53,290 nt of DNA, filler included, from Jimgerdemannia flammicorona (GCA_003990765.1; 3 parts of 3 records of this genome joined end to end with filler, not necessarily neighbours in it); one strand, 5' to 3'. Shown: positions 1,545-53,290, counted from the first letter of the whole stretch. Program-made: numbers and translations. Notes: generated by a model from the letters alone, not told the origin.

Positions 1545-1645
1545 TTTTTTTTATAGTTACTTGGACTCCTTTATTAGAATCTAATATAAAAAAACAAACT
1601 CTATGCCACAAATACTACAACAATAATGTACAAAGATAAGACCCT

Positions 1646-5249: not shown

Positions 5250-5269
5250 TAATAAAAATGTTTAAAGCT

Positions 5270-10000: not shown

Positions 10001-10126
10001 AAACTAGAGCTCAAGTAGAAAGGACTCTATCTTATGCAAAATCAAAAGAAACTGTCTTTTGGTTATAAAAATTATCAGATATAATTATCTCTATTACTAC
10101 CTACTGAAACTAACTCAAAAAGTACC

Positions 10127-14800: not shown

Positions 14801-15291
14801 CATCTCTAGGTCAGTTGCAAGTAGAGTAGTTGTCTGAGGTTTGAGTATAGTTTCCTCCACTGTAGTGATATCCATTCCAGCTGCATTTTCTGACTTAAAT
14901 TCTGGTAGGACTGTATCAGGATGAATTTTCTGAATCTTGATCTTGATTTCTTCTTCATTATCACTGTCTTTGAGGAGAGCTGGTGGTTCATCATCCCCTT
15001 CTTCTTTCATTTTCTTTTCTTCTCTTGCCTGTTTCTTGAGGGCCTTCTCTCTTCTTTGGTAGTAGATCTTCTTAATTTTGCCAGTGCACTGGTAAAACTT
15101 GTTGACATGCTCCATATATTACATTTGGATCCCATGGGGGCAGACTTCCTGTAGTGCATATCCTTCCATAATCTTCTTGCACCAGTCTTCTTTACTCATC
15201 CATCCGATTTTCTTCTTCTTTTTCTGAGTTGTCACCATATAGGCTTCCTCTTGTTCACTCTCTTCTTTCTCCATCTCAGACAGGACTCCTT
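11825..15291 (-). pseudogene. pol: pol of Gypsy B (Cys/His module, dUTPase, RT, RNase H, integrase)
   Basis: Motifs SPWSLPVVLAPKK, RLCIDYRKLN, LDLYSGFHQI, MPF, YMDD and YLGH; interrupted by stops. Confidence 0.9.
14534..14947 (-). pseudogene. Trimeric dUTPase domain in Gypsy B pol
   Basis: All five dUTPase motifs in degraded form: AAGMDI, TRCSLA, GEVINSDYTGEI, KDWLIQ, RGKKGFEST. Confidence 0.9.
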
Positions 15292-17699: not shown

Positions 17700-17799
17700 N
17701 NNNNNNNNNNNNNNNNNNNNNNNNNNNNNNNNNNNNNNNNNNNTTAATTAATTAANNNNNNNNNNNNNNNNNNNNNNNNNNNNNNNNNNNNNNNNNNNN
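17700..17799. other. Artificial contig spacer N44-TTAATTAATTAA-N44
   Basis: Exactly 100 nt, with stop codons in all six frames; identical to 35496-35595. Confidence 0.98.
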
Positions 17800-18081
17800 T
17801 AGGAAATTTCATAACAGGGTTAGAAGTGGGACCTAACAGAGAGTAGATTTACTTAAGAGTGGTTTGTGGGTTATTAAATAGATTTATTCATTATTCATGA
17901 TATGGCTATACTAGGAGTAGTTGTATGAAAGAATATTGTGGAGAAGTGTTCAGGAATGTTCTTGTGTATTTGAGTCTGTGTAAGTTGCTGGAGTAGTAGT
18001 TATGGGTCTAGAGTGAGGGCTCGATAGATAGCTATCTGTTACTATATAGATATATTTTATTCTGATGAAGGTGTATCTCCT

Positions 18082-24027: not shown

Positions 24028-24031
<4 letters not shown>

Positions 24032-24807
24032 TGTGTCTCCTTTGGTGATATATTTGGAATCAAATTCACTGAGATACTCCTCCTCCTCTTGGCTTTGGTC
24101 TCCATATAATTGGGTTTGCTCAGCATTAAAGTAGATAGAATCAGTTATATATCTGATTTCGGAAGGACTTAATTCAAAGTCAAGTTCTGGTTTGGTATTG
24201 GTTTCAGGTTCAGATAGAGCTGTAGTAGAGCCTGCTTCTGGTTCAGGGTCAGGTTGTTGATGAAGAGTTTCTCTTACTTCTTCTTTAAGAATATAGCAGA
24301 CCTTGCTGTTCTGAAATCAATAGTATAATGCAGTCTTGGTCCTGGTATGGTGAAAGTTGATAGAGTTGAGCTACTTGGCTACAGAGGCTTGGGCTTTATG
24401 AGAAACTAAGGCTAGAAAGACTACTGTTGGTTGTCCTAGGTCACTTGGATTTGTAGAGCTGATAAAACTCTTATTGAGAAGAGTAAAGAAGGCTTCTATA
24501 AGACCTTCTTCATCTTGACTTACTGGGTATAGTGTAAGGAGTTCAGTATATAAGGTTTTGTCTATCTGCTGATTTAACTGGAATACTTCTTTTTTTGAAT
24601 GAAGTTTGTCTCACTTGTTGCAGGTGTGAAGGTCAAATTGTCCTTGTATATTAGGTTCAATTCTCTCCAGATTGTCAGATGATTCAGAATAAATTCCAGT
24701 TCAGAGGTTGGGCTTACTACCAACTTATAGGAATTCTCAAAGAGATTTATAGCAGGGTGAGGAAGTATCTTGAAGTGGAATTGGATTGTAAACCACTACT
24801 ACCAAAT

Positions 24808-25289
24808 TATAAGAGGGTTACTTATTAGAGTAACTATTATATAGTTCTAAAAGAGTTTTCTGGAAGTTCTGGATATTTTGGAAGGCTGTTTTCTTAAGGT
24901 CAAAATCAATTTTGTATGGAGTATATCCTCTATGCTTATTGATTTCAAGATCAGGTTGATGTCTCAACCTAAGTCCTTTTTCAGACTGGTTCTGGATGTT
25001 CATGAAATTTCCTAATTGGGTATTGTCTGCAGTGATATACCAATTCAACTAAGCTGGTCTTAGTTTCTTAAACTTTCTGAAATATAGAAAATTCTGAACA
25101 TTCAGAATCAGTCTGAAAAAGAACTTAGATTAAGATATCAACCTGATCTTGAAATCAATAAGCATAGAGGATATACTTTATATGAAATTGATCTTGACCT
25201 TAAGAAAATGGTCTTCCAGAATATCCAGAACTTTCAGAAAACCCTTTCAGAACTATGTAACAGTTACTCTAATAAGTAACTCTCTTACA
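24808..25289. repeat. Inverted repeat of the LTR 3' end: 195-bp arms (24808-25002, 25095-25289) with a 92-bp spacer
   Basis: The left arm reverse-complements to TGAACATCCAGAACCAGTCTG...CCCTCTTATA and the right arm reads TGAACATTCAGAATCAGTCTG...CTCTCTTACA. Confidence 0.9.
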
Positions 25290-25302
25290 TTAGCAATGTA
25301 TA

Positions 25303-33475: not shown

Positions 33476-35446
33476 CTACCACGCGTTGCTCCATCCAAGC
33501 GAGTTCTCCTGCATGATGGGAGCGGATATGGACGGCCCGTAGATCTGGGCGTTCTGGTGCTGGAGCTGTGCCTGCTTCTGCTTCTTTCGCTTGTACGTGC
33601 GGATGACGACGGCGGTGAGCCCGGCGTAGAGGATGGTGCAGCCGCCGACAGCCAGCCCAATTATCAGGCCTTTGCCCATGCCCGCGCTCTTTTGAACGTC
33701 CGAGGGAGAGCTACTGGGGTTCACGTCGGGGTTATTAGGGTCAACATTGCTGTTAGACTCGGAGCTAGTGCCCGGCACGCCAGGAGCGACGAAGGCGAGG
33801 GAGTAGGTCGGGTCGATGAGCTGGCCGATCTGGCCGGTCTTATTCGAATAGAGCTCCGACGAGGGGTCACGGATCTCCTGCTGGAGCGGGGCGACCTGTT
33901 TCTTGGGCAGAGCGAAACGGATGACGATGCCAGAGCCTGCGTCGCGGCGGCGGCGGCGAGAGCTTTGCAAGGTGTTGGAAGCGGAGCAGATAGAGAGGAT
34001 AATGACATCTGAAAGAGAGCAGTCTTCGAGTGTCGCGCAGATGCAGGTGGGGAAGAAGTTGATGATCTGGGATGAAAGGACGGGGTCGACGACGAGCTGG
34101 GTGTAATCAATATTTAAGAGCCTCATACGGACGATGGAACTCGACGCGGGGATAACCACATTCAGGTTCGGGGTGATGAACTGAGGTACGTTGGCGGGTG
34201 TATCGGTGGGCGTCAAGGTAATGGTGGAGGAGCCGCTGACGACAATAATAGGGGATGCCGACGTGGTGGGTACGACGGTGGCGGAGCGGAGGTCGAGTGT
34301 CGATGGCAACCACGTGAGCGAAGAGTAGACGAAGCTCTTGAGCGGAGTGGAAGAGACCGTCATGTACGAGGATGAGGTGGTGATAACCTTGGACGACGTG
34401 GATATGATGGTCTTGGACGTGGAAGTTGTGCGGATAGAGACGGCGGACGAGGAGATGGTGATGACAGGAGCGCTAGAGATTGTGTAGATGGAGGCGGCGG
34501 ACGAGGTGATGTTGATGACAGGAGCGCTAGAGATTGTGTAGATGGAGGCGGCGGACGAGGTGCTGGTGATGGCAGGAACGCTAGAGGTTGTGCGGGTGGA
34601 GACGGCGGACGAGGTGACGACGAAGACAGTGGAGGACGAGACGAACGTGCTGGACTCCTTGGTGCTGGACTCCATGGTGCTGGACTCCTTGGTGCTGGAC
34701 TCCTTGGTGCTGGACTCCTTGGTGCTGGACTCCTTGGTGCTGGACTCCTTGGTGCTGGACTCCTTGGTGCTGGACTCCTTGGTGCTCGGTAAAAACCAGT
34801 CAAAGGTCGGGGTCACGCGAGATGTCTGAATGTCGGTGCTGGACTCCTTGGTGCTGGACTCCTTAGCGCTCGACGGCAACCTGTTAAAGGTCGGAGTCAC
34901 GCGGGAGGATGTCTGAATGTCGCTGCTAGTCTGGGTCACATACGAGGACGAAGCCGAGAAAGATGCCGTCAGGTGGTCGCTGCTTCGGGTCACATCCGAA
35001 GACGAGGTCGCCGGGACACTGCTGCTCCGGTTCACACCCGGAGACGGGGCTGCCGAAACGCTGCTGCTCTGAGTCACGTATGATGATGAACCTGTCGGAA
35101 CGTCGCTGCTCTTGGTCATGTAAGACGACGAAGCGCTGCCACTCTGGGTTACATACGGCGACGGCGAAGCCGCCGGAGCCGCCGAAGCCACCGAAGCGCT
35201 GTCACTCTGAGTCATATACGAGGACGACAGCAATGGGCGAGTATCGCTGGTTTTAGTCACAAACTTTGAGGTCGAGTCTGAGGACTGGGCCGACGAAATC
35301 GTTGTGGTGGTGCTAGGGGTGAAGATGGGGCCGGTTTTGGAGCTCGAGTTCGGAGCTTCTGAAGAGCTGGCGGACAATGTGGTAACGATGGGCGAGTTTG
35401 TGCTCACTGTGGGTAGGAAAATGGCAGATAGAATGTTGGGATTCAT
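33476..35446 (-). CDS. MSB2: Msb2/Hkr1-family signalling mucin (possibly 5'-incomplete)
   Basis: Intact 656-aa ORF. It has a long Ser/Thr-rich repeat region, an Hkr1-Msb2 homology-like domain (YTQLVVDPVLSSQI...IRDPSSELY...LIDPTYSL), one transmembrane segment (LIIGLAVGGCTILYAGLTAVVI) followed by RTYKRKK, and the family C-terminal motif ISAPIMQENSLGW. Confidence 0.88.
   Translation of the reverse strand: MNPNILSAIFLPTVSTNSPIVTTLSASSSEAPNSSSKTGPIFTPSTTTTISSAQSSDSTSKFVTKTSDTRPLLSSSYMTQSDSASVASAAPAASPSPYVTQSGSASSSYMTKSSDVPTGSSSYVTQSSSVSAAPSPGVNRSSSVPATSSSDVTRSSDHLTASFSASSSYVTQTSSDIQTSSRVTPTFNRLPSSAKESSTKESSTDIQTSRVTPTFDWFLPSTKESSTKESSTKESSTKESSTKESSTKESSTKESSTMESSTKESSTFVSSSTVFVVTSSAVSTRTTSSVPAITSTSSAASIYTISSAPVINITSSAASIYTISSAPVITISSSAVSIRTTSTSKTIISTSSKVITTSSSYMTVSSTPLKSFVYSSLTWLPSTLDLRSATVVPTTSASPIIVVSGSSTITLTPTDTPANVPQFITPNLNVVIPASSSIVRMRLLNIDYTQLVVDPVLSSQIINFFPTCICATLEDCSLSDVIILSICSASNTLQSSRRRRRDAGSGIVIRFALPKKQVAPLQQEIRDPSSELYSNKTGQIGQLIDPTYSLAFVAPGVPGTSSESNSNVDPNNPDVNPSSSPSDVQKSAGMGKGLIIGLAVGGCTILYAGLTAVVIRTYKRKKQKQAQLQHQNAQIYGPSISAPIMQENSLGWSNAW
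34440..34615 (-). repeat. 51-bp coding repeats in the mucin (SSAASIYTISSAPVIxI-like, about 3 copies)
   Basis: GGCGGACGAGG recurs every 51-57 nt, with two near-identical ACAGGAGCGCTAGAGATTGTGTAGATGGAGGCGG units. Confidence 0.8.
34647..34786 (-). repeat. 15-bp coding minisatellite (KESST)x9 in the mucin; two more units at about 34836-34865
   Basis: GTGCTGGACTCCTTG repeated nine times with a single T>A variant. Confidence 0.95.
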
Positions 35447-35495
35447 TGTCGGATTTTTTTATGGGACTCCATTTTTTACACCTCCAGCTGCAAAA

Positions 35496-35595
35496 NNNNN
35501 NNNNNNNNNNNNNNNNNNNNNNNNNNNNNNNNNNNNNNNTTAATTAATTAANNNNNNNNNNNNNNNNNNNNNNNNNNNNNNNNNNNNNNNNNNNN
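35496..35595. other. Artificial contig spacer N44-TTAATTAATTAA-N44
   Basis: Identical to 17700-17799. Confidence 0.98.
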
Positions 35596-35695
35596 TTTTA
35601 TAGTCTCTTGGACTCCTTTATTACAGCTATCGAATATAATTACAGAGAACTACAATACACTACCAATCCTAAAACATATACTGAAGTAGAGTCCT

Positions 35696-38600
35696 TCAGC
35701 CAACTCCTTCCTTCCATTGCACCCCACTATCATCTAACACCAGAAACCCTCAACTCTGCAGTACAATGTCTTGTACTTTCTTCACTGCCCCCAACTTCTG
35801 ATGTCTCCCCTGATACCACCAACCCTGTACTACTTCCTGCACCAGCCAATGCCATCGCTCAACCAGGTCCCCAATTCCCTTCCAACATTCACCTTCAAAG
35901 ACCCATCGCCAGTGTGCTACCATTAAGACCCACACTCCTAAGATCTGCCCGACACCTCCCCAAATGTCCCCAACATCTCCCACCAGTCTCCTCCAGATGA
36001 CGACACTAACTGGCTCTCCCAGCCTCCTTTGATCCGAACTCCAATATTCCTCCAACATCTGCCAATACCCCTCCACCCCTGGACAGGCCCCCAAGACATA
36101 CTCTGGGGTCTGAACCACTTCTCCAGAAATCTCCGCACACCATTCACAATCCCTGCATCCATCAGTCACTATCCACCCTGTCCAATAGTTTAACATTACA
36201 TTCCTTCTCATGAACCTCCACCAAACTACCCAATACCAAGGAGGTACCACCTTATTCAAGATGGTGGCCCATCCCTAGATTCTACCCCATTTCCATGTCT
36301 TGCCAATACCAGCTGTCTGCCATCCTACTGGCCACCGCTCAAGAGGGCCTGATCTGGCCCATTCCATCGCCTCAACCAGAGAATAATCCTTCAGCTCCTT
36401 CCCTCCCACCCTAAGTAATTCGAGTTGCCACCACTGCTGCTCAGGGTCCACCTCCTCCTCTATCACCTCCACCTCCGGCCCCATCAGGCCCATCGTAAGC
36501 CAGGCCTCAATGATGCCCCACCAGAACCCTTTGAACCGTATCCTCCCCACAGATCTGATCTGAAGTAGCCCTCGCAAATCCTTCCTCTCTGCACTCTGGG
36601 GGCAGAACCTGATCTCCCAATTGTCCATTGCTAATCTGCCCCAGCTCTCTTCCCCTAGCTCCACTAGTCGGTGACCCCACCAGCCCCACAGTGCCTTCAA
36701 CCTTCGCCGAAAGTCCACCAACCCCAAACCACCATCAGCAATTGGCAGCACCAATGCATCCCATCCAATCTGCAGCCGTCTACCCTTCCAGAGCCACCCT
36801 TCCATAGCCTTCTTGAGATGCCGCACCACCCAATCAGGAAAATTGAGGTGGTAACCCAGGTACCACAGCTTCGGCAGCCAGTATTCATTCAGAACCACCA
36901 CTTTTCCTACTAGAGAAAAGTTTCAACCAGCCCAGCCCGTCAACACTCCTTCCCATTTTTGTACCATAGAACTCCACCACTCCTTTGGCAGAACTGTCCT
37001 GAACACTGAAAACCATATCCCTAAGCATCTGACTGCCTCCCCCTTAGGCACCACTCGTCCAAGCCCTGCTACCCCTAAGCCTGTGCCAAGCTCTAAGGTT
37101 TCACACTTCCCCCAATTCAACTTTGCACCCGCCAACCCTTCATACTGTTCGATTCCTTCTTGCAAAATGTCCACATCCTCTATGCTACCAAGCCCTACCA
37201 CCATGTTGTCCGCAAAGGCCCCCAGCTTCCAAACCACCTCACCTATATGCAGTCCATTCAGCCTTTCTCTCAGCCATGCCAGCACCAGTTCTAGTGAGAG
37301 GATATAGAGAAGTGGCGAAAGTGGGTCCCCTTGCAGAACCCCTCTTCCTAAAGAAAACTCTGGGCCACTCCAGCCATTCATCAGTACTGCCCCTCGATAG
37401 CCTCGCACCAACCCTATCAACCATCTAACCTCTTTCTGCTTAAAGCCAACTTTCTGGAGAATCGCTTCTAGGTAGCACCACCACACCCTGTCATAGGCCT
37501 TCTCTTGATCCAAAAAGACCATCCTCCCATCAATCTGCCTACTTCTACAGCCTTCCAAAACGTTTTGCACCCAGGCAGTACTGTCTCTGATCTGCCGGCC
37601 CTTCACAAAGCCCCTCTGTTCCTCCCCTACCAATCTTCCAATCCACTGCTGCAACCTCCCTGCTAAGATTTTCGAGACTAGCTTCCTGTCGACGTTTAGC
37701 AGCATAATTAGCTGCCAGTTGCACCACTCCCTCCTGTCACCTTTCTCCTTATACAACAAAGACACCAGACCTAAACTTCCATTCCCAATCCACCATCCTT
37801 TCTCTAGTATGAAATTAACCATTTCAACAAGCCAAGCTCCAAATTCTATCTTAAACTCCTTCCAAAATTCCCAAGGGAGGCCATCCTCCCCTGGTGAGGA
37901 ACCACTCGGCACCTTCTGCAGAACCTCCAACACCTCCTCCAAAGACACTCTGCCAAACACTGATGCTCCAATCTCCAGTTGTGGCACCACTGGCCAGTTA
38001 TGTACTAGAGGAGCCTCTGCAACCTCCTCTACTCCAACACCTCCACCCATATCATCATCACTCCAAAGGGTCTGCCATTGCCCTGAGATCTCCTCCAACA
38101 TATCTGCTACACTGGTAACCTTGACACCATCTTCTCGCAAAACTGAAGACCAGCTACATATGTCTAACATTCCTCACTTTCAAGATACCAGATAAGTACT
38201 TAGTTGGCCTTTCACCCTCTTCCAGTCGTCTAGCCCTTAGGCGCGCCAGGAGCCCATCCACAACTCGATCCTTGGCCTCTCTCAAGGTTGCCTGTAGGTC
38301 AACTACCTCTCTGGCGAGTTGTCTCTTCCTCTCTTCTGCTAGTGAACCATCTTCCAATAGCTTCAGCCACTGCTGCAATCCCCTTTCAACTCTCCTCTCC
38401 CTGTCCTTTTGCTCCTTTCCAGCCACTTCCCCAGTGTCTCTCCAATATGCGCCAGCAAGGTGTTTGAATCTGCCCCACCAATCCACAATAGGTAGACCCC
38501 CAGCCACCCAACGCTCTACTTCCTGTCGGGCCATGTATACAAATTGCTCCCATTCTGCCAGATGCCGGAGCAGTGCCACATTGAGACACCAGTGCCCACC

Positions 38601-39338
38601 TCCCCCATTAACAGCCCAGAATCTCCCACTCACCTCCACTCCCCAATGGTCCGACCATGGGCACTACCGTACACCGACCATATCGAAAACATTACCCCAA
38701 TGTTCAGCTACCAACACCCAGTCAATCCATGTACCAACCATCCCATTGTCTATAGAATGCCACCTGGTAAAGGGGCCTGACCCATCTCCTGCCCTCAATC
38801 GGACCCCATCCACCAATTCCATCCCCTTCTCCACCTGAAGCCACTGAGATAGCCCTAGAGAGACCGCTACCCCAGCCCCGCCATCAGACCGATCTAGTGC
38901 ATGGTCTCTAACCATGTTAAAGTCACCCCCCAAAATGTCCAACTCTAAAGCCGCCCAATTCTCCCAAGCCAGCCACTCCTCCACTCATTGCTTTCGCTCT
39001 CTGCCAACTGCTGGCAAATATACTAAACCAATGAAAAGTCCATCTCCTTTCCCTCCCTTTAACCTCCCCCACACCAGTCGATCACCATAACCTTCTACAT
39101 CAACTAACTCCCCCTTCCCAACTCTAACCAGAATACCAACTTGTTTACTCCAACCTGTATTCCCAAACCATTCCTGACTCCACAATTCATAGTCCTCCTC
39201 CCCATAGGCCCGAATATCTTGAAGAAATACCACATCATACTGTCAGACCTTCAACCATCGAAAGAGATGCCTCTGCTTCACACCATCTCGCAAGCCATTG
39301 ACATTGATAGACAGAATTTGTAGGTCGTACTTCATCAT
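35696..39338 (-). pseudogene. LINE ORF2 (APE endonuclease, RT, zinc finger); a few stops and one frameshift near 38165
   Basis: MMKYDLQILSINVNGLRD, FLQD, GGDFN, WIDW, SDH, SPGEDG, LDQEKAYDRV, QGDPLSPLLY, FADN, CEWC. Confidence 0.92.
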
Positions 39339-39344
39339 GAAAAA

Positions 39345-41220
39345 TTTGGAGTTTAGATATCAGCTGTCACTGCCGCCACCTTCACTGCTCTGCCCTTAAT
39401 GATGTCTCGACGCTTCTCACAGACTGCTCACCAAATCCTTTCACCATTGACACTGCTGCAGAAGCAGTCCACTCGCTTGGATGCCACCTTACGGATATCT
39501 GCCATTCGGTCATCATCCACCTCATACCCTTCATCCTCTAGCAGGGCTGCCACCATTGCAGCCACCAGCTTCGGTCCCTGCATTGCCACCTTGAGAAACC
39601 CTTCCCATGCCTCCGGAGAACCCTGAAACACATCCACTTCCTTAATGTCGTCCTCTGCCAGTTCCTCCAGAACTGCCTGGAACCAACCATCGGCCACCAT
39701 TGCCATTGGCCCTGGAGTCGTGGGCCTGGGAGTCCGGCAAAGCTCCTGAAGCAGCTCTCTATCTGCAGAAACATCTGAAGCGACATCCACCAGCTCATCC
39801 TCTTCAGAGACCTTATCCAGCCGCACCACCTCCCCTGCTTCTGGACATTCCCAGTGCACATTCGCTGACCTAGCCATCACCATGTCTTCCATTGGAGTTT
39901 CGGGAACCACCTCAACATTTTCTTCGAAGCCCTCTCCTCTCTCTTCCTCTCCATCTGCCCACTTCTCTGTCACAGGTGCATGCGCAGATTCCTCTACTCC
40001 CCCCAGCTGCAAGAAGGACACCTCCGCCACCTCCACTCCTTCCATTTAATTCCTGTCAGATGCCACCCTTTCAACCTCCTCCTCCTCAGAAGCATGCAGC
40101 ACTGCCTGCAGCCGCTCCCAGTTTGCTCTATGCCAACACTTCCTCTTGCCATCTGTTTCGATCCAGATCCAATCCTTAGCAACTTCCTCTTATTTCCTTT
40201 TCTGCAAGGCCTTTGCCTCATCACGCTCCTCAAGGGCTATCAGCAGCTCCTCCTCTTCCTGCTCAGAGCCTTTCCTTCTCCAGACCCAGCAATTCTGCTC
40301 CCCAACACGAATGATCTCTGGTCAATCTCGCCCCAGGCCCATTGTCTCCTTTCCCTCCAGCCACACCATCGCCTCACAATTACCATTCCTCAACTTTGTG
40401 CCCTTCCAAAACATGAATCTGAAATCAACCATCTCACCAAAGCCTTCCAGAGCCTTAGCAACCACCATCTTAGTCTCCTGCCTGCTCAGTGTTGGCAATC
40501 CTTCTACCACCAACCTCACCACATGTGGGTCCTATTGCAAGCACCTCACCATCCCCACCTTAACATTCTTGACCATCAACCCTTTCTCCAAGGCCTTCAC
40601 CATAGCCTCCTCTTCAACGAATCCGACCTCGACTGCCTCAGCCAAGGGGATAAACCTCAGTGACTCAGCCCCTGCTACCTCCTCACCCACCAGTCATAGA
40701 ACTTCCTTGGCTGACAGACCAAGGCCCAAGAAGTTGGCAGAGACTGCCCACAATGACACTAACTTGTGAAAAAATGGTCGCACCACAAGCTCTCCAGTTC
40801 TTGCTGCCAGAGTCGCCTTGTTCTTGCTACCTGAAACACTAGCTACTATCTCGCTAGGAGCTACTGCGCCACTAGCAGTCCTACTCCCAGCCACTGGCCC
40901 AGCTCCAGGAAAGCCAGTTCTGCCGTCACACCCCTGGACCCCTGACCCCTGCTGGGCCCCTGACCAGTCAGCTGACCAGTCACCTGACATCCACCCCTGT
41001 CAATACTATGCCCCTGCTGCCCCCCAACTATAGGCCTAGCGACCGCCCGCTTACTCCCCACCACCGTGTGCTAGCCACCCACTCCTGCCACTGATCTACG
41101 GCCTCCTGCTTGCCCTCCTGCCCCACCTTGACCCACTGCCACTGCAAAACTCTTGGGGAGGCCTAGGCCAGGCCTCCTCCTCTCCAGGCGCTCCGAGCTT
41201 GATGAGTCTTGAGTCGCCAT
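39345..41220 (-). pseudogene. LINE ORF1 remnant (low-complexity N-terminus, RRM-like core, acidic C-terminus)
   Basis: Fragments 40694-40990, 40322-40522 and 39428-40045 share one frame and match ORF1 pieces in the other LINE copies. Confidence 0.75.
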
Positions 41221-41404
41221 ACCACGGAAACTTGACGGATTTTGAAGAAACTTGCTGTGAATTGTTGCCAGACTTCTGCCGCACCTTGCACACCAGTATG
41301 GACGAAATGAAAACTTGAAAACGCGTTGCTTTTTGCAAAAGGTTACCTGTGTGGCTTAGCTCTCTCTGAATGGTTTGAGTAAAGGAAGTCTCTCCAAGTT
41401 CCCC

Positions 41405-42096
41405 AGATAGCTTAGTAGTTATAGTATAGTTATATTAGCCTTATATGATGTAACTGTGAACTGACTCAGTAGTCAGACAATCCCTTGATATATCAGATCA
41501 AACTTGTACTATGTGACTGTATTCTGACTCAGCAAGGCACTAAGTACTATATCTATATTCAGTATAGCTCAGATAGCCTCTCACTAGTATAAATACCCCC
41601 TCTCTCAGACCTCAGAATCTCAGACTTAAATAGACTTGAACATATGAACAATTCAAATACAACTCTTGAGCACTTCCCTATAATATCCTTTCACACAACT
41701 ACTCCTAGTATAGCAATATCATAAATAGCAAATAAACTTATTTAATAAACTATAAACCACTCTTAAGTAAATCCACTCCCTGTTAGGTCCCACTCCTAAC
41801 CCCATTACAAAATTTCCTAATTGGGTATTGTCTGCAGTGATATGCTGATTCAACTAAACTGGCTTTAGTTTTTTAAACTTCCTGAAATTTAGAAAATCCT
41901 GAATATCCAGAACTAGTCCAAAAAGGAACTTTGGTTGAGATATCAACCCAATCTTGAAATCAATAAGTATAGAGAATGTACTCCATATGAAATTGATCTT
42001 AACCTTAAGAAAAATGATTTTTCAGAATATCCAGAACTTCCAGAAAACTCTTCCAGAACTACATAATGGTTATCCTAAAAAAGCAACCCTCTTACA
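41405..42096 (+). repeat. 5' LTR of Gypsy C (3' 692 bp only; truncated by LINE-4)
   Basis: Aligns with 49984-50674. TATAAATA at 41588-41595, AATAAA at about 41731 and 41744, ends CTTACA before the PBS. Confidence 0.92.
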
Positions 42097-42099
42097 ACT

Positions 42100-42111
42100 T
42101 GATAGCAGCAG
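42100..42111 (+). promoter_or_regulatory. Primer-binding site, probably for initiator tRNA-Met
   Basis: TGATAGCAGCAG lies 3 nt after the LTR end; the derivative copy reads TGGTAGTAGTGG. The reconstructed TGGTAGCAGCGG fits a tRNA ending ...GCUACCA. Confidence 0.7.
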
Positions 42112-44122
42112 TTTACAATTCAATTTCACTTCAAGATGCTTCCTCACCCCACTACAAACCCCTCTGAGAATTTCTATAAGTTGGTATAAAGCCCAACCTC
42201 TAAACTGGAATTCATCCCAAACCATCTGACAATCTGGAGAGAATTGAACCTGATGTATAAGGACAATTTGACCTCTGCACCTGTAACAAGTGGGACAAAT
42301 GTCATTCAAAGAAAGAAGTACTCCATTAAATCAGCAAATAGATGAAACCCTATTTACTAAACTCCTTGCTCTACACCCAGTAAGTCAAGACAAAGAAGGT
42401 CTTATAGAAGCCTTCTTTACTCTTCTCAATAAGAGTTTTGTTAGCTCCACAAATCTAAGCAATCTAGAATAACTAGCAGCAGTCTTTCTAGCCTTAGTTC
42501 CTTATAAAGCCCAAGCCTCTGTAGCCAAGTGGCTCAACTCTACTGACTTCTACTGAACAAGAACTAAGACCACCTTATACTACTACTTCCAGAATTGTAA
42601 GGCTCACCATATTCTTAAGGAAGAAGCAAGGGAAACTCTCCATCAATAACCTGACTCTAAACCTGAAGCAGGCCCAGCTATAGCTCTACCTGAACCTGAA
42701 ACCAACACTGAACCAGAACTTGACTTTGAATTAAGTCCATCTGAAATCAGATATATAACTGATCCTATCTACTTTGATGTTGAGCAAACCCAATTACATG
42801 GGGACCAAACTGAAGAGGAGAAGGAGTATCTCAGTGAATTTGATTCTGGATATACCATAGAAGGAGATGCACCTCCATCAGAACAGAATACACCTACACA
42901 GCAACAGACTGCTATCTATCAAGCCCTTACTTCAGACCTACAACTACTACTCCAGCAACTTACACAAACTCAAAGAACACCCTCACACTCTGTACCAGTA
43001 CCTTAAGTAGTACTAGTAACACTACTACCAGCAGTCCAACTGCCTTCAGTAAACAATATGGCAAACCAACAGATTCTAGACCTCACAGCCCAGATAGCCA
43101 TAATGGCAGCAACCATCACTACCTTAGCCGAACAGACCCAACCAACTAAAAATCTAAGTCTACCTACCTTCAATAGTACTGCACAAGAAGTTCAAAGCTT
43201 TATCAGTATAGTTGATACCAACTTCGAAGCCAACCAATGGACCAACAAGTGAGTTGCTGACTGCCTTCTAACAAACAATCAAGACTATACTCTAGAACAA
43301 CTCTTTGCTACTACTACAGCCTATGTCTACTGAGTTGTTACATTCTTCCAAGAACCTGCTGAAGAATGGTGGCAAACCCTTTCTGGAAAATCTCTCACAT
43401 GGGACACCCAACCTGCAGTAGTTGCCCAGAATGCAGAAAATAATGCCCCAGAATATGGAGCCCATCCTGCAGCCCCTGGACTCAAACAACTCATGATTGC
43501 TCAATACTATAACAAAACCATAATTGCTGAATCTTGAGTTAAACTCTGCAACCTCAAATTTGATGTACATGGTAAGGAGGAATTCAAAACCTTCTGTACA
43601 AAACTCGAGTCACTCCTGAACACTGTTGGCCTAGGATATATTGCCAATGATAAAGTGCAAAATAGTACAAAAGCAGACTATTTATTCAATACACTACCTG
43701 AATGGCTTATTAGAAAAATCTGAGAACAAGGCTGCCCATTTGGTTGTAATTACTAACAATAGTGTCTAGCAAGAATCAAGATCATAGTCAAGTGAATTCT
43801 AACAGCTGGACTAATTCTGCCCCAAAGACAATTCAACAACAAGGAAAAGACTTAGACTAAGAAAGAAGAACCCAAGCATGAAACATCCTGAGCTCCCTCT
43901 ACATCTACCTCATGGACCTCTAGAAATCATAAACCCACCCAGCTGAGTACCTTCAAGAAACTCACTGAAGGAGAAAGAAATAAACTTTGAAGAAGTGGAG
44001 TATACTTCTATTGCCAAAAGACAGGACACATGGCCAGTGCCTGCCCTAACCAAAAACCTCAAACAGTAATACAAACAACTGTCACTATTCTGCACCACCT
44101 CAATAACCTAACTACCAGAATA

Positions 44123-44530
44123 CTGAACTTTGTGAAGTTAAGGCAAACTGCCAAGGCCCCAACCAAAGGAAGTCAAAAAGCAGCAGGATATAACCTGTAT
44201 ACAGCTAAAGAAGCTATAGTCTCCAACCAAGAAGTCAAGCAAGTCTATACAGGAATCAGTATCCAAATCTCTGAAGGATATATTGGAAGGATATGCTATC
44301 ACAGCAGCCTAGCATTGAAAGAACACTCAGTAGAAGGAGGAGTCATTGACAAAGATTACACAGGCAAAATTATTATCCTTATCTGAAACTATAGTTGGAC
44401 ACTCTTCAAGATCTCTATTGGTTTCTATATCACACAGATCCTATTTGAGAAAATTGAGTCAACTCTGACAGTCAAGGAAGTCCCTGAACTACTGTCCACC
44501 ATCTAAGGATCCAAAGGATTTAGCTCATCA
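44123..44530 (+). pseudogene. dUTPase domain between the Gag zinc knuckle and the protease in Gypsy C
   Basis: AAGYNL, YHSSLA, GGVIDKDYTGKI, ITQI, *GSKGFSSS. Confidence 0.9.
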
Positions 44531-47500
44531 AACAAAGCTCCAGCCCAACCTACTATGAGCAAAGAAGAACAATTCTATAAGAAAATCGAAGATAGATATG
44601 TACCAAGTGGCTGATATTCCCATGGTATTAGAATATACTCTTTCTGAATGATCAATGATTGCTTCTTTTGTGTCAATGAACTGGCTCAAAGGAGAACCAA
44701 TAGATGGAAAGCTTCAAGTACTGAAATCACTACTATCAGATCAGAAAAACTGCTTCCACTTCAAGCTTTTATCAATCAAGCACTCATCAAGATCATGATA
44801 GACAGCAGTGCCTCAGGCAACTTCATCAATGAAGAAACAGCTAACAGACTCAAGGTCTTCACTTCTCTAGTACAACAGACTCAAGCAGTTGCCACAGCTG
44901 ATGGAACCTTGTATATTATTAGCAAGGAAGTCTGAAATCTACCCTTCCAAATTGGTGACTACTGAGTATATATTACTCTCCAGATTATACCACTTTCTTA
45001 CAATGAAATCATCCTTAGAACCCTATGATTAAAATAAGAGAACCCCATGATCAATTGGATAAACTATTCACTAACTATCAAGAAAGGATGCCATAACTTC
45101 AAACTGCAAGGTAAAAGGGACCTACTCAGTTCTAGTGACTCTGGACCAAAGATTACTTATATCAATAAGCTACAGCTCAAGAAATTGGCCAAGAAATGTC
45201 CTCTCTTTGCCATCCCCATCTGCCCATCCAAAGGAGAAGCTGAGAACTCTGAAGAAGACTTTTTCAAAGTTAACAGCCATTGAGATATATTTCCAAAGAA
45301 ACTCCTGAAAGACCTACCACCTAAATGAGCAGTAGACTATGTCATCAAGACCATCCCAGATGCCAAGCCAGCCTTCAAATCAATCTACCACATGTCTCTA
45401 AGAGAAATTGATGTACTCAAGAAGAAAATCAACAAACTCCTAGAACAAGGATTCATCAGACCCAGTGTATCACCCTATGGTGCACCAGTCCTCTTTGTTG
45501 TCAAGAAAGGAAGAGACCTGCAAATATATATTGATTACTAAGATCTCAATGAACAAACCATCAAGAACTGCTGCCCACTGCCTAGAATTGATGAAATATT
45601 CAATAGACTCACCAACCTGCAATTCATGAGCTCTTTTGATCTGCAAAATGACTATTGGCAAATTACTATGAAAGAAGAAGACATCTACAAAACAGCCTTC
45701 CGAACTCACAATGGACACTTTGAGTTCCTGGTTATGCCTTTTGGCTTAACTAATATCCCAGCAACCTTCTAGATACTGATGAATACCATTCTATACCCAT
45801 ATCTTGACAAATTTGTTGTTCTCTACATTGATGACATCCTAGTCTTCAGTAAAACCCTGGAGGAACATCTTGAATATCTTGAATTAGTACTACTGAAACT
45901 CCAAGAAAACTGACTCTTTGCAAAACTTAGCAAATGCAAATTTCTCCTGAAGGAAATTCAATTCCTTAGACATATTATCATACCAAATGAAATCAAAGTG
46001 GACCCCAGCAAAATCTCCACAATCAAGGATTGGTCCAGACCCAAGAAGCTGAAAGACCTCTAGTCATTCCTGGGATTAGCAAACTATTACAGATGATTTG
46101 TTGCCAACTTTGCCAAAATCACTATTACTCTTACCCAAATAACTAAGTACAATAAGAAAGGAGAACAGCCCTGGACCATGAAAAAAGAGAAAGACTTCAA
46201 CAATCTTATGAATTGGGGGCCTGAACAAGATACAGCCTTTCAAGTACTAAAAGATGCCTTGATAATCACTTCAGTACTTCAAGCAGCAAATCCTGCCCTA
46301 CCATATGAAGTTACTACTGATGTCTCTGATCTAGCTCTTGGAGCAGTGCTCATGCAAGAAGGACACCTAGTTGCCTATCACTCCTGTAAGTTCAATGATG
46401 CTGAAATCAACTATGCAACTTACAAGAAAGAAATGCTAGCCATTGTAGACACTCTGATCAAATAGCAATTATATTTAGAAGAAGTACACTTCACTGTATT
46501 GATTGACCACAAGTTATTAGTCAACATCAAGACCCAGGCTACTCTTTCTCAAAAGCAAGCCAGATGGATGAAAGTTCTCACCAATTTTGACTATGAAATC
46601 CAGTATCAGTCTGACAAGGAAAATATTGTTGCTGATGCAATCTCCAGACTACTAATCAAAGAAGTTATCCAAACCCTTACCTTGGTTATCAACACTATTA
46701 TGGAACAAATTATTGCAGCATGTGCTGATAATAAGGAAGCTCAAGTACTCTGAGAAATCCTGAGCAGTGATGATACCAATAAGTACACCCAGTACCATCA
46801 ATACTAACTGAAGGATAATGCTATCTACTATAAGGACAGATTGTATGTTCCAAACAACCAAGACCTCTAAAGGACTATCCTATTTGAATGTCATGATACC
46901 CCTATAGCTGGACATTTAGGATTTGACAAATGCTATGAAGTTATCTCCTAGAACTTCTATTGGTCCTGTATGGCAGATCAGCTCAAAACCTACATCACTT
47001 CCTGTGATACCTGCCAATACAACATGTCCTCAACACTAGCAAAACCTGGCCTACTCCACCCTATCCCAGTACTATCTGCTAATTGGGAACAAATCTCGAT
47101 GGATTTCATTGTACAACTACCCTGAACCAAGAATGGGAAGAATACAATTGTTGTTTTTGTGGACTATCTCAGTAAGCAAGCCCACTTTGTACCAACTACT
47201 ACTACCACAATAGCACCAGACATAGCCACACTCTTGTTTGACAATATCTTCCACTATTATGGTCTTCCTAAGATCATTGTCAGTGATCAAGACCCAAAAT
47301 TCACCAGCCATTTTTGGAAAGCCCTCCATGTACACCTGAGAACAAAACTTGTACTATCTATAGCCTTTTACCCCAAAACTGATAGCCAAACTGAAAGAAT
47401 GAACCAAACTCTGGAACAAATGCTAAGGAATTATGTTTTCTATAAACAAGATGATTGACATGAATACCTCACCATAGTTGAGTTTACCTACAACAACAGC

Positions 47501-47994
47501 AAGCAAGCCTCTCTTAGAATAACCTCATTCTTTGCCAATACAGGACAAAACCCAAACACACCTCTGACACTTATCTGGACCACTGATGAACTCTCTACAG
47601 TCGAAGCTATTGAAGAATTCCTACTCCAAATGTACAATCTAAGCCAGATTGCCATCAAGAATTTATCACAATCCTAAGAACAACAGTCACAGTATGTTAA
47701 CTAATACCACCAAGAAGAAACTTTGATATTGGAGAAAAAGTTCTACTGGATATCTGAGGATACCAAGTTGACAACCTCAAGTACAGACCATCTACAAAGC
47801 TGAATAGTAAATTTATTGGGCCATTCAAAGTCATTGTACAAGTCTCTCCTACTTCATATAAATTGGTACTACCAGGTACTATTAAGATCCACCCAGTCTT
47901 TAATGTCCAATGTCTCAAGTGATACAATGAAAATGATGATGAACTGTTTTCAAACTGGATCACTAAACCACCTGCACCTGTTATTAATGATCAA

Positions 47995-48162
47995 GAAGAA
48001 TATGAAGTTGAACAAATCCTCAACAAATGCAGCCACAAGAACTATCCAGAATATCTTGTTAAATGGAAAGGCTATCTGATTCATAATGTAACATGGGAAC
48101 CTAAAACCAATCTACAGAATGCCACTGACTTAGTTCAGGAATATAATTTCTTAAACAACTAA
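47995..48162 (+). pseudogene. Chromodomain at the integrase C-terminus
   Basis: EEYEVEQILN...EYLVKWKGY...TWEPKTNL. Confidence 0.92.
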
Positions 48163-48575
48163 AACTATTCACTTAGTACCTATCAGTATATACTATATAT
48201 TATCCTCCTGAATATTATAATTATTATGAACAAAATCAAGAACTCAGCAAAGATAAGACAAAGAATATTGACCCTCTAGAAAAATAACAAAACTGAAAGC
48301 AAGCCTATTCTCTCCATATTACTTGTGGGAAACAAGATATAGACATTTAAGAAGATTTCTTAAAGGAAATTCTCCAGCAGTGAATGACATCAGAATCACT
48401 TCCAGTACATGGTATTGAACACATAACCCTTTAATATATAAATCCAATGTATTAGACAACTTTACTACAAGTATGCCACTTTCTGAAAAAATAGACTTCA
48501 TTGGACTTTTGACCTCCCAAATGATATAACAATACTAGAATAAATTAGAAGGCCCCGATGAGGACATCAAAAGCT

Positions 48576-48588
48576 AAGAAGGGGAGAG
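48576..48588 (+). promoter_or_regulatory. Polypurine tract of Gypsy C
   Basis: AAGAAGGGGAGAG, then T, then TGTAAG. Confidence 0.8.
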
Positions 48589-48589
48589 T

Positions 48590-50674
48590 TGTAAGTGCAC
48601 AACCTCTAAGCCACTGAAATCACATATTACCCTCTGAATAAGCCACTGAAATCATATGCGACCTCTGAACAAATCTGGAAATCATTTGCATGATCACAAA
48701 GCTGAGTCAAACTGAAGTCACAGTACACAAAGCTGAGTCAATATGAAGTCATGGAATACAAGATTTATACAAACAGAATCTTACCAATCAGGATCAAATG
48801 CATATATACTGAGCACTGAGACATGTTGAAACAGAGAACTAAAAAAAACAACAAACACAACTTCTAAATATACACAAACATGACCACCAAGATCTATAAT
48901 CACATCTGTGCTAATATTTGGAATGCTATTGTCAACCGAGTCACACTCTCTCTGTCCCTCATGAATATCTATAGCCTAGCACTCTTTTACTTCATGGAAG
49001 CCCAATGGAATGCCCTGAATATACTTAGTGAAGTCTACCAAATTGGACAAATCTCAAGCTACTACCAGATTGGCTGCCTCCTAGAAGACATGGTCAAATA
49101 CCACTATAATATAGACATTACCTAGATGTCCCAGCACCAGAAGCTCATCATCCGTAAACATTGAGAACTCTTCTATGAGTTCAGCACTGTTATTCCCCAC
49201 CTCTGAGTTACCACTAGTAAAATGGTTGCTACTCTGTCTTATGGCCAAATCAATGACATGATACAAGAACTCAACCACAAGTATCTCAAGTATGTTTAGA
49301 CCACAGACAGAATCTTTCTGCACCCTGATGACTATATTCTGTGAATACCCTAAGTCAGATATGCTATAAAGGATATCTATGATATAATCCAATTTGATGA
49401 AGATGAAGCAGAAGATAATGATCCCTCTGATGCCAATATGACCTTAAGCCAAGGATCTCTGCCAACTCTGATCACTCCACCAATACTGCTGATGAACTTA
49501 TAACAGTTCATAACCACCTATGAGACCTATTGGGACAATGACTACTGACACAAATACCAACCCACATTCACTCTCAATTACTTTAACTATAATGAAGAGA
49601 CAGGAGAACACAATCTGTATTTTCAGACAACCCTCAAGACTGAACCAACCACTCCACCACCTGAGTATGAACAACATGAACCACAGCCACCAGCTTACTA
49701 TAACCCCACAACTCATAGTGCCATAACCTATAGAAGGTATACAGACAGCAAATCTGATGAAAGTGAAGATGATGTACCACTCCTTCATCCACCAACTCCA
49801 TACCCAACATATGAGACAGACAATACTATCTTATGGGACAATGATGAAGTCCCAATATATTACTACCTCAGTGAACAAGGAGAATTAATCTGCAAACCAC
49901 TCTTCCTAGATGACTACTTTATCAAAGATGATGTCATTGATGATAATGTCATCAAAGACTACCCAGACAGCATCTAAATCTATAGATAGCTTAATAGTCA
50001 TAATATAGTTAGATTAGCCTTGTATGATGTGACTGTGAACTAACTTAGCAGTCAGATGATCCCTTGACATGTCAGATCACACTTGTATTATGTGACTGCA
50101 TTCTGACTCAGCAAGACACTAAGTGCTATATCCATATTTAGTATAGCTCAGATAGCCTCTTACTAGTATAAATACTCCCTCCCTCAGACCTCAGAATCTT
50201 AGACTTAAACAGACTTGAACACTTGAACAATCCAAACACAACTTCTGAGCACTTTCCCACAATATCTCTTCACACAACTACTTCTAGTATAGCAATATCA
50301 TGAATATCGAATAAACCTATTTAATAAACCATAAACCATGCTTAAGTAAATCTATTCCCTGTTAGGTCCCACTCCTAACCCCATCATGAAATTTCCTAAT
50401 TGGAGATTATCTGCAGTGATATGCCAATTCAACTAAGCTAGCCTTAGTTTCTTGAACTTTCTGAAATATGGAAAATCCTGAATATTCAGAACTAGTCCAA
50501 AAAGGGACTTTGGTTGAGACATCAACCCAATCTTGAAATCAATAAGCATAGAGGATGCACTCCATATGAAATTGATCTTAACCTTAAGAAAATGGTCTTC
50601 CAGAATATCCAGAACTTCCAGAAACCCCTTCCAGAACTATGTAATGATTACCCTAAAAAAGCAACCCTCTTATA
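48590..50674 (+). repeat. 3' LTR of Gypsy C (inferred length 2,085 bp)
   Basis: Starts TGTAAG directly after the PPT and ends CTTATA (CTTACA in the 5' copy), giving a 6-bp terminal inverted repeat. Only the last 691 bp can be confirmed against the truncated 5' LTR. Confidence 0.75.
48880..49977 (+). pseudogene. Decayed 366-codon accessory ORF inside the LTR U3, function unknown
   Basis: One frame from ATG 48880 (context ACAAACATG) to TAA 49977, with 8 internal stops and no frameshift needed. Contains an acidic run (FDEDEAEDND) and a Pro/Tyr-rich region (PPPEY, QPPAYY, HPPTPYPTY). Confidence 0.65.
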
Positions 50675-52914
50675 TAGACCCCTTTGCTATAGAAGAAGCA
50701 GGAGAACTACAAGTTAGTATAAAGGACATGATCATCTCTATAATCTACTAAATCTAAGTACTTCAAGTATAACTAGAATAGTAGAAAACAAGAACTGTGA
50801 GTACATCATATTCTGCTATAGCACCAGTCTGTTTCAAGCCACTCAAGCCAGATATCTTTGATAGTCACTAAGGAGGACTATCTATAGAAGTATAGATCTT
50901 CTAATTAGATCAATACTTTGAGCTTACAAGAATGAAAGAAGATATGCAAGTCCAATTTGCTGCCACACTTCTCCAAGGAAATACAGCCATTTGGTAGTGC
51001 AATTACATTATAACTATATCTATATACTTATATATATAAAACAAAGATTGAGAAGCTTTCAAGAGAGCCCTTTATAGGTAGTTCAAGCCAGCTAATGCTA
51101 CCAAGCTAGCCAAAGATAAGCTAGCAAACATCAAGTAACTCAAGTCTATATAAAGCTATAATATATAATTCCTGTTAATCCTACTTGAACTACCAGTGAT
51201 AGCTGAGGATAAAAAGATAGATCACTATATCTGAGGTCTGAAGAGAAATACATGAGTCATGGTCAAGCTAGAAGAGCCACAAAGCCTTGATAAAGCTATG
51301 AGAATTGCTGATAAGTTCAATATTATTATCTTTAGCAACTATTTCAAACCAGAACACTGCAAGAAGAACTACTTTGAGAACTACCACAGAAACCAATCAA
51401 GGACTTAGACACTATGAATAAAAAGAACACCAAGCTCACCTCTGAAGAAAAGGATTGTCTGAAGAAATCTGGAGTCTGTTTTTTCTATTGCCAAACAGAA
51501 CATATTACAACCAAATATTTTAAGAAGACTAGTACACCTTCTAGACCAGTCATCATATTTTCCAAAGATATACCTATCAACCCTACTATCAGTCAATCTG
51601 AGCTCAAGATCAAGAAGCTTCACCCAAAGGCCCAGGCCCCTCAATATCAAACAGAAGAAGCCATTGGTCTTGACTTATACTCTGTCAAACAAGTCACTCT
51701 TCCAGCCAAGAGCTGAACTTTAGTGCCTACTGGAATTGCAGTCCAATATTCTGAAGGACATTATACCAGAATTGCACTATAATCAGGACTCAGTGTCAAA
51801 TATAGGTACTGACCCAGACTTTCAAGAACAAGTTCAAGTTCTGCTTATCAACCAGAAGGATCAAGACTATACAGTCAAGAAAGGAGACTGAGTCATACAA
51901 ATGATCTTAGGAAAAACCAGTAAACTCAAGATTACCAAAGTCCAAGAACTCTCTGAAACCAAATGAGACCAAAAAGGTTTTGGTAGCACCAATTAAGCAG
52001 TAAGTCTTACTGAAAATCAAGCTCAAGCTATGCTCATTTTCAAAGGCCTAGTCAAAGAAAAAGACATTCAAGTGCTTATAGACAGTAGAGCTATAGAGAA
52101 CTTCATCAATCAGAATCTCATTAAAAGCCTCAAGATCCTCACCAAGCCTGTATCCAAGAATAACAATATAGTTACTGCAGATAGTACACTACACCTCATC
52201 AAGTCAATTGCTGCCAAACTATCTATCAAGATCCAGAAATATTGGGAATAAGTAGACTTCAAGATTGTACTACTAAGAGATCATGACCTAATTCTAGAAA
52301 AACCCTGGCTTATGAAATACAACCCAGATATCAATTGGTACAAGAATGAAGTCACCTTACTTTAAGGTAGAGCAAACATCACTATCAAGACAGACAAAAC
52401 TATGAGCAAGATCCAGATTATAATACTGTTGGCCATATAGTATAAGAGAGTACTCAAGAAGATAATATATGTCTTTATTATAATAGTCTATCTCAAGAAA
52501 TAAGACAAGAGACTATTAGTCAATAAAAGTATCAAGTTACTACTAGAAGAATTCAAGGATGTCTTTCCAGATAAGCTATCTGGTCTACTGCCTATACAAG
52601 AAGTTGATCATGAAATCAGACTGACCCCAGGAGCTATATGACCCAAAAATATATATACTGCATATCACCACTCGAAATTGAAGCAGTCAAGAAGAAACTA
52701 GAAGAACTACTTACATGAGGAGCCATTCAGTCAAGCAAGAAGAAGAATGGTATCCTGTGAATATATATAGACTACTGTATACTCAATAAGCTGCTACCCT
52801 TGATTGATCAAATCTTTAATACTCTTAAGAATGCCAAGTACTTCACTAAGTTAGACCTCATATCAGAATCTTTAGTATAACTAAAAAAGAATACCTCAAA
52901 CATATTCAAACAGT
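50675..52914 (+). mobile_element. Ty3/Gypsy element D fragment (gag-zinc knuckle-dUTPase-protease-start of RT), host of element C
   Basis: Gag KPDIFDS...F*LDQYFEL...FAATLLQGNTAIW*, knuckle GVCFFYCQTEH, dUTPase, protease LIDSRA...LILEKPWL, then EEFKDVFP and a deleted RT start. Confidence 0.88.
51600..51993 (+). pseudogene. dUTPase domain of Gypsy D
   Basis: AIGLDLYS, LVPTGIAV, *SGLS, DPDF, KGD*VIQ, *DQKGFGSTN. Confidence 0.88.
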
Positions 52915-53290
52915 CAGGGGGACCCTCTATCCCCTATTCTCTATGCCCTGTCACTGGAGCCGTTGATGGATAGAATTCGCCGGAAGATAGCAGGGCTCTC
53001 TATCTATGGTATAGTGTGGAAGGTGGGGGCCTTTGCTGATGATATGGTGGTTGGACTTGGGTCTGTGGTGGATGTAGGGGAACTTCGGGAGACAGTGGAA
53101 TGGTACGAGGCTCATTCTGGGGCGAAACTCAACTGGCATAAGTGTGAGACAATGGTGCTAGGGAATGGGTTGGTGGGTGGGGACATCATTGGAACAATTG
53201 TCCCTACGGGTGAGGTGGTGCGATATCTGGGCATCTTCCTCTCTGTCTATGGTTCTGTCTTGCCAAGGGTGTGGTGGGAGAGCAAGGTGC
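52915..53290 (+). mobile_element. 5'-truncated young LINE, subfamily II; open RT frame to the window end
   Basis: QGDPLSPILYALSLEPL...GAFADDMVVGLG...RYLGIFL with no stop in 125 codons; CpGs intact. Confidence 0.92.

Follow-up and report, generated by a model that had tools for sequence, protein, structure and literature searches.

The region between 48590 and 50674 of a 53,290-nt stretch of Jimgerdemannia flammicorona DNA was analysed, the whole stretch being termed the window. This region is probably the 3' long terminal repeat (LTR) of an old, dUTPase-encoding Ty3/gypsy chromovirus, whose U3 (the upstream, unique 3' part of the LTR) holds the relic of a family-specific gene of 365 codons. 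The window consists of three contigs artificially joined by N44-TTAATTAATTAA-N44 linkers at 17700-17799 and 35496-35595, and therefore the neighbourhood across the linkers carries no meaning. The third contig (35596-53290) contains both the LTR and the frame under study. The features of the frame are given below.

48880..49977, plus strand: relic of a 365-codon accessory gene, with 8 internal stops, a terminal TAA and no frameshift
49657-49668 and 49687-49698, plus strand: PPEY and PPAY motifs, residues 260-263 and 270-273
49960..49974, plus strand: YPDSI, end of the acidic aromatic C-terminal tail, identical in P0001 and P0003

An earlier reading of this DNA made without any search (the sequence-only reading) had described 48880-49977 as a frame of uninterrupted phase with eight stops, and this description was reproduced as 365 codons plus the terminal TAA. 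The same reading had found the stop density similar by eye to that of the decayed gag-pol. The counts are in accordance with this, being 1 stop per 46 codons in the frame and 1 per 44 in the main gag-pol frame (43 stops in 1,900 codons). The remaining five gag-pol frames contained 90-188 stops per ~1,900 codons, and the other two sense frames over 48880-49977 contained 18 and 45.

The frame was translated with an X at each stop and used as query for the protein searches. Two proteins came from the word-indexed search, one of similar length out of 712 candidates and a shorter one out of 27. When 1.84 billion representative proteins were scanned exhaustively with HMMER, P0003 and P0004 were the sole matches at E<=0.001. 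Both are predicted proteins free of stops and are encoded on short contigs of environmental DNA. P0004 (128 aa, on a 1,180-bp JGI contig) aligned without gaps to residues 1-128 with 94 of 128 positions identical (73%) and the same Met-Thr-Thr start, while P0003 (247 aa, from a 998-bp ENA contig) aligned to residues 115-365 with 154 of 251 identical (61%) and 201 of 251 positive, having two in-frame gaps of two residues each and the same YPDSI-stop end. Conserved blocks included QFITTYETYW, YFNYNE-TGEHNLY and HPPTPYP, as well as the acidic aromatic tail with YPDSI at its end. A maintained frame is indicated by the shared start, the shared stop and the fact that both indels keep the phase. The frame is more than chance because two stop-free homologous proteins match it in the sense frame, and judged from these alignments it is the relic of a real protein-coding gene of the element family, which bears out the earlier proposal of an accessory gene. 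The tblastn search of the three proteins against the window revealed no paralogue.

The decay of the frame was examined against the homologues. All 8 of the 8 internal stops align with Gln, Arg or Trp. Among 375 aligned residue pairs 127 differ; a single C>T or G>A change on the window's side accounts for 66 of these and a transition the other way for 20, which leaves 41 that match neither pattern. A soil-metagenome sequencing run (word share 0.08) yielded 6,243 short contigs 80-100% alike along 41244-50875, the gene included; these contigs are ~200 nt long and none bridges the LTR boundary informatively. At 48913, 49548 and 49925 the contigs all differ from the window and agree with the residues of the homologues. 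By these comparisons the window holds a copy, altered by deamination, of a gene whose frame is open in other family members. The element itself is evidently old and decayed by cytosine deamination, as indicated by its CpG depletion (observed/expected 0.04, or 0.03-0.06 in the comparison with the LINE) and by 69 transitions against 8 transversions between its LTRs.

Several results weigh against a gene on the sense strand. The codon-aligned antisense frame is equally open, having 8 stops over 366 codons and a stretch with as few as 6. The gag-pol codon-usage model scored +51.5 for the sense and +50.4 for the antisense frame compared with -53 to -90 for the four other frames, so it separated the right phase and did not separate the strand. 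In the whole window 11.8% of 104,386 windows of 366 codons have at most 8 stops, mostly in G+C-rich long interspersed nuclear elements (LINEs). The equally open antisense frame and this background mean that the stop density alone proves little. The explanation built on these figures, that there is no sense-strand gene and the low stop count comes from base composition or from a real antisense gene, is nevertheless highly improbable: the two independent gene calls, which come from other contigs, follow the sense frame and agree with it in Met and stop, the antisense translation has many Trp, Ile and Val residues and looks like a mirror of the Pro/Asp/Asn-rich frame, and the ATG is preceded by an A/C-rich leader with A at -3.

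The origin of the gene was also considered. LTR retrotransposons are known to capture gene fragments, and the open reading frame (ORF) is unrelated to gag or pol, as would be the case for a captured host gene or fragment travelling in the LTR as a passenger without any role for the element. Such an origin was judged unlikely, as no cellular homologue was found among the 1.84 billion representatives and both matches look like further copies of this family. Copies with 61-73% identity retain the start and the stop, both indels are in frame, and the gene is accompanied by a complete promoter-like module related to the LTR's own.

The position of this family gene relative to the LTR was determined from the following features.

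48576..48588, plus strand: polypurine tract AAGAAGGGGAGAG, 13 nt, followed by one T and then TGTAAG at 48590
48590..50674, plus strand: 3' LTR, TGTAAG...CTTATA, 2,085 bp, with CTTATA at 50669-50674
41405..42094, plus strand: 5' LTR remnant comprising the last ~215 bp of U3, R and U5, 88.7% identical to 49984-50674
35596..41389, minus strand: full-length LINE cutting the 5' LTR, with RVT_1 at 36926-38173, its 5' end at 41389 and its tail at the contig start

There are 16 purine runs of at least 10 nt in 41405-50674. The run at 48576-48588 is the last of them and the sole one with TGTAAG behind it (1 nt between), this hexamer occurring 3 times in the 9.3 kb. The terminus of the 5' copy, CTTACA at 42089-42094, is the exact reverse complement of TGTAAG and gives a perfect 6-bp inverted terminus; the 3' LTR end CTTATA is one transition away from it. 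The region shows two marks of a Ty3/gypsy LTR, a polypurine tract directly upstream and TG...CA inverted termini. The sequence-only reading had placed LTR ends of TGTAAG and CTTA(C/T)A 2,085 bp apart and the frame downstream of the polypurine tract, and both placements agree with the present coordinates. Since the gene lies downstream of the polypurine tract and of a start, TGTAAG, with the CTTACA end as its mirror image, it is very probably located within U3 of the LTR, a placement resting on the tract and the termini. The ORF starts 291 nt downstream of the polypurine tract and so does not lie between pol and the tract or 3' LTR, where an internal ORF3 would be found. With the gene inside the LTR, each complete element would carry two copies and each solo LTR one.

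The comparison of the whole repeat revealed that the 5' end of the element retains the last 690 bp alone, being cut by the LINE at 41405. Of the 692 columns in the alignment of the two LTRs, 612 are identical; the remainder comprise 69 transitions, 8 transversions and 3 gaps. The LINE at 35596-41389 is taken to be younger than the chromovirus because its CpG observed/expected ratio is 0.33 compared with 0.03-0.06, and its 5' end abuts the remnant, in line with the earlier suggestion of a 5' LTR cut by a LINE. A second copy of this LINE family (1549-7233) ends at 7233 in the same motif as the 5' end at 41389. The natural reading of these sequences is that a younger LINE inserted into the 5' LTR. 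As the contig begins with the tail of this LINE, the 1.4 kb lacking from the 5' LTR must belong to a different contig. The fifteen bases between the LINE 5' end and the LTR remnant (41390-41404, TCTCTCCAAGTTCCC and then C) match neither element and may be untemplated or a 5' extension from the LINE insertion.

The placement within U3 has to be weighed against a number of contrary points. The 1,394 bp with the gene are present in one LTR only, no second copy of 48590-49983 being found anywhere in the window, and the sequence after 42094 contains no recognisable primer-binding site (PBS). The 5' remnant starts at the equivalent of 49984, only 6 nt past the end of the gene's stop codon (49977), as a 690-bp LTR with an internal ORF3 would give. 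The summed depth of the soil contigs over 48812-49843 is 386-738, below that of R-U5 (about 1,000-1,100), although this depth is no copy number. These points could be accommodated if the gene were an internal ORF3 between pol and an LTR of ~690 bp starting near 49984, with the purine run and TGTAAG (48576-48595) arising by chance. The available passages of PMC5408684 amply document additional ORFs located between pol and the 3' LTR, and the depth over the ORF is closer to that of the internal region than to R-U5, unreliable as it is for copy number. The depth also climbs in the bin with 48590 and drops past 50674; the depth profile was not used either way. No related copies were found in the metagenome_contigs, viral_contigs and genome_contigs scans.

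A short LTR of this kind, however, has no purine tract ahead of 49984, and transitions are unable to hide or erase one. It would open with AGATAG, without TG and without an inverted match to CTTACA. The chance of TGTAAG standing behind one of the 16 purine runs was estimated from the counts at ~0.01. The younger LINE must moreover have hit no more than 15 nt from where the element truly ended, which is a coincidence similar in size to that of the remnant beginning next to the stop codon. Because both coincidences are of similar size, the polypurine tract and the termini decide the LTR placement, and an internal ORF3 is considered improbable.

The element to which this U3 gene belongs was characterised by the Pfam domain search as a Ty3/gypsy chromovirus with the order gag, dUTPase, protease (PR), reverse transcriptase (RT), RNase H (RH), integrase (IN) and chromodomain.

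42095..48575, plus strand: decayed internal region, gag first (Pfam matches; polyprotein 42095-48150)
44150-44530, plus strand: dUTPase (Pfam E 4.9e-24)
~44738-45082, plus strand: aspartyl protease (Pfam E 2.9e-05)
45521-45967, plus strand: RT, RVT_1 (Pfam E 2.6e-25)
46214-46588, plus strand: RNase H, RT_RNaseH (Pfam E 1.1e-25)
46856-47365, plus strand: integrase (Pfam zinc domain Integrase_H2C2 8.8e-17, core 5.4e-06)
47797-48147, plus strand, in a frame shifted by one: Tf2-type SH3 and chromodomain, Chromo (Pfam 8.5e-14 and 1.3e-14)

The gag-pol reading follows a single frame to ~47795 and is thereafter shifted by one base. RT, RNase H and integrase are followed by a C-terminal chromodomain, which is the order that defines a chromovirus. 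The nearest named pol relatives among the 120 matches listed were plant and green-alga chromoviruses with 33-47% identity, and no fungal names occurred among these 120. Pfam lists of the 120 nearest pol relatives listed appeared to contain no dUTPase. Fungal chromoviruses with a dUTPase are described in the available passages of PMC2864245, namely PosPlaTy3 (Postia), the Phanerochaete elements and Tmt1 (Tuber). They resemble the present element in being Ty3/gypsy elements that combine a chromodomain with a dUTPase placed on the N-terminal side of Pol, and differ in that no LTR-borne ORF is mentioned for them in those passages (PMC2864245).

The U3 upstream of the gene and the region downstream of it contain the following promoter-like features.

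48607..48756, plus strand: enhancer-like tandem repeats at the U3 start, 32 nt x2 (48607-48669) and 31 nt x2 (48695-48756), the latter each with TGAGTCA
48803..48879, plus strand: proposed promoter and leader for the U3 gene, with TATATA at 48803 and an A/C-rich leader (48840-48879)
50008..50340, plus strand: main LTR promoter and R, with 43-nt repeats at 50008-50050 and 50071-50113, TGACTCA at 50104, TATAAA at 50167, AATAAA at 50310 and 50323

A CCAAT at 48784 stands ahead of the TATATA, and the A/C-rich leader of ~40 nt is free of AUG up to the ATG at 48880. The LTR TATA box reported earlier is the TATAAA at 50167, and the leader was likewise present as described. The main promoter and R features (50008-50340) also occur in the 5' LTR remnant. 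The two promoter regions were compared with each other. The 14-mer CAAACACAACTTCT is found in both leaders, at 48852-48865 and identically at 50233-50246 after the main LTR TATA box. The 31-nt unit recurs in inverted orientation at 50082-50112 (80-81% complementary), within the 43-nt repeats before TATAAA. The score of the reverse-strand alignment of the two regions was reached by 0 of 300 shuffles. Less favourable to a relationship is the forward alignment, which was weakly above shuffles, as 3 of 300 reached its score.

These modules suggest that the U3 gene may have been its own transcription unit, with the enhancer-like repeats carrying TGAGTCA, the TATATA box and the A/C-rich leader acting together. 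The 31-nt unit and the 14-mer are common to the gene's promoter-like module and the main LTR promoter 1.3 kb downstream. In the simplest model an mRNA of ~1.5 kb would be made from any LTR, starting near 48835 and using the AATAAA signals of R for its 3' end. Alternatively, the gene would be expressed as a spliced sub-genomic RNA coming from the 3' LTR.

The product of the frame is acidic with an isoelectric point (pI) of 4.4 and is without a signal or membrane segment. The N-terminal ~140 residues are neutral and predicted helical, and the 225 residues from 141 to 365 contain 44 Asp+Glu compared with 11 Lys+Arg, together with 22 Tyr and 23 Pro; the acidic tracts noted earlier are thus present. 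From these predictions it is speculatively proposed that the product falls into two parts, the first ~140 residues being helical and the C-terminal ~220 acidic, rich in Tyr and Pro and predicted to be disordered. No family, fold or structural match supports any function of the product, and this counts against the reading offered here. No Pfam family was obtained at E<=1, and the best E of the sequence profile search against PDB was 0.12. The ESM Atlas model of P0003 had a predicted local distance difference test (pLDDT) value of 0.39 with no usable feature match, and the Atlas matches for P0004 were non-specific and below the recognition bar. AlphaFold2 gave a pLDDT of 30.4 for the full frame and of 51.3 for P0004 alone, the latter with five helices; neither model is confident. 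The search for fold relatives recommended earlier, made with Foldseek against PDB, gave 0 matches at E<=0.001.

The PPEY and PPAY motifs had been put forward in the sequence-only reading as binding sites of a possible Rsp5 adaptor serving anti-silencing or particle trafficking. Both motifs are present in the frame. At least two PPxY motifs occurred in 176 of 20,000 composition-matched shuffles. P0003, the sole homologue over this region, has PLSEY and PLAY at these places, so that 0 of the 2 motifs are kept, although P0003 may itself carry C>T changes. A Pro to Leu replacement is a C>T change, which bears on the ancestral state of the PPxY sites. The expected conservation of the motifs was thus not found in the one homologue that covers them, and the Rsp5-adaptor, anti-silencing and trafficking roles are left unsupported. 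Plants are not known to have WW-HECT ligases of the Nedd4 type, so in a plant host the Rsp5 idea would be weaker still. The terminal YPDSI is reminiscent of the YPx(n)L/I motifs to which ALIX and PalA bind, which is a lead only. A speculative role for the product would be that of an adaptor or regulator working in trans on behalf of the element by way of short linear motifs.

The presence of accessory genes within U3 is considered characteristic of complex retroviruses. The sag gene of mouse mammary tumour virus (MMTV) is an 'LTR ORF' of about 320-370 codons in the U3 of a betaretrovirus and is duplicated with each LTR. The present gene is like sag in being an accessory ORF of similar size in U3, and sag expression does not depend on the genomic promoter alone. 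It differs in that the product has no Sag homology (no Pfam match at E<=1, best PDB E 0.12), is acidic (pI 4.4) and lacks a signal or membrane segment, and in that the host element is a chromovirus of the Metaviridae without env. The nef gene of the human and simian immunodeficiency viruses (HIV/SIV) and bel2/bet of foamy viruses overlap U3, and foamy virus Tas is driven by an internal promoter. The likeness here is that the 3' end of the element encodes a protein of regulatory or adaptor type, with a second promoter used in foamy viruses; nef and bel2/bet, however, start upstream of the LTR and run into U3, whereas in the present element gene and promoter-like module are both entirely downstream of the polypurine tract. 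By this analogy the U3 gene appears to behave like the U3 genes of complex retroviruses such as MMTV sag, yet it belongs to no known family.

Plant Tat/Ogre elements also carry extra ORFs. The bdelloid elements Vesta, Juno and TelKA have family-specific extra ORFs (ORF3/aORF) that are often separate transcription units, according to the available passages of PMC5408684. Both groups resemble the present case as Ty3/gypsy elements with family-specific extra genes of unknown or varied function, and differ from it in that their extra ORFs are outside the LTR, either ahead of gag or in the interval from pol to the 3' LTR. Judged by titles, the beginnings of abstracts and some passages, the literature searches gave papers on MMTV-type 'LTR ORFs' and on internal ORF3s and none on an ORF wholly inside the LTR of a Ty3/gypsy retrotransposon; a paper on U3 variation of Podospora crapaud does not deal with ORFs.

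If the placement is confirmed, LTR retrotransposons can evolve a retrovirus-like genetic complexity without env, and long LTRs may conceal genes that annotation pipelines mask as repeats. Solo LTRs would then be a route by which a gene borne on a transposable element is spread in hundreds of promoter-equipped copies, and the orphan protein family would allow the responses of elements to a heavily methylating and deaminating host to be tested. A further-reaching proposal, offered tentatively, is that the chromovirus LTR is a complete gene cassette with enhancers, TATA box, leader, ORF and poly(A) signal, whose largely disordered product would act in trans as an adaptor or regulator for the family. 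If this were true, each insertion would deposit two expressible copies, each solo LTR would leave a free-standing gene, and the element would be the first LTR retrotransposon other than a retrovirus with a sag-like gene in its U3.

The surroundings of the chromovirus contain a further element.

50675..53290, plus strand: second Ty3/gypsy element with capsid, dUTPase, protease and RT (Pfam; 25-37% amino-acid identity to the studied element)

From these matches the studied chromovirus is placed as nested inside a different dUTPase-bearing gypsy element downstream of 50674. A tandem arrangement, in which the sequence after 50674 would be the PBS of an element sharing the LTR, was rejected, as the downstream element has only 25-37% protein identity.

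Three distinct Ty3/gypsy elements in the window have a dUTPase upstream of the protease or RT (44150-44530, 13895-15118 on the minus strand, and ~51630-51990), and a dUTPase seems to be common in the gypsy elements of this genome. Further pieces of the same chromovirus family lie at 24028-25290 and 17800-18081, the U3 gene being present in none. Within the first piece, at ~25000-25015, a minus-strand LTR end with gag start meets a plus-strand LTR end head to head; in the second, gag sequence is fused directly to part of the LTR, which is an internal deletion. Another gypsy element is present in two inverted copies, 7245-10421 and 14809-11541, that are 68% identical, and one of them has 25-28% G+C, an extreme C>T and G>A decay. 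The LINE copies 1549-7233 and 35596-41389 are 66% identical and have a strong plus-strand C excess with a GC skew of about -0.45. Their CpG observed/expected ratios, 0.01 in one and 0.33 in 35596-41389, indicate that age or methylation history differs greatly between them. Amid the CpG-depleted transposons an intact ORF of 660 codons is found on the minus strand at 33479-35458, with a G+C of 0.58 and a CpG observed/expected of 1.08. Its product has no Pfam match and is Ser/Thr-rich, with SSTKE repeats, a single C-terminal membrane segment and a tail that is short and basic. The ORF has the appearance of a host gene for a cell-surface mucin or sensor, and presumably the product resembles a fungal signalling mucin.

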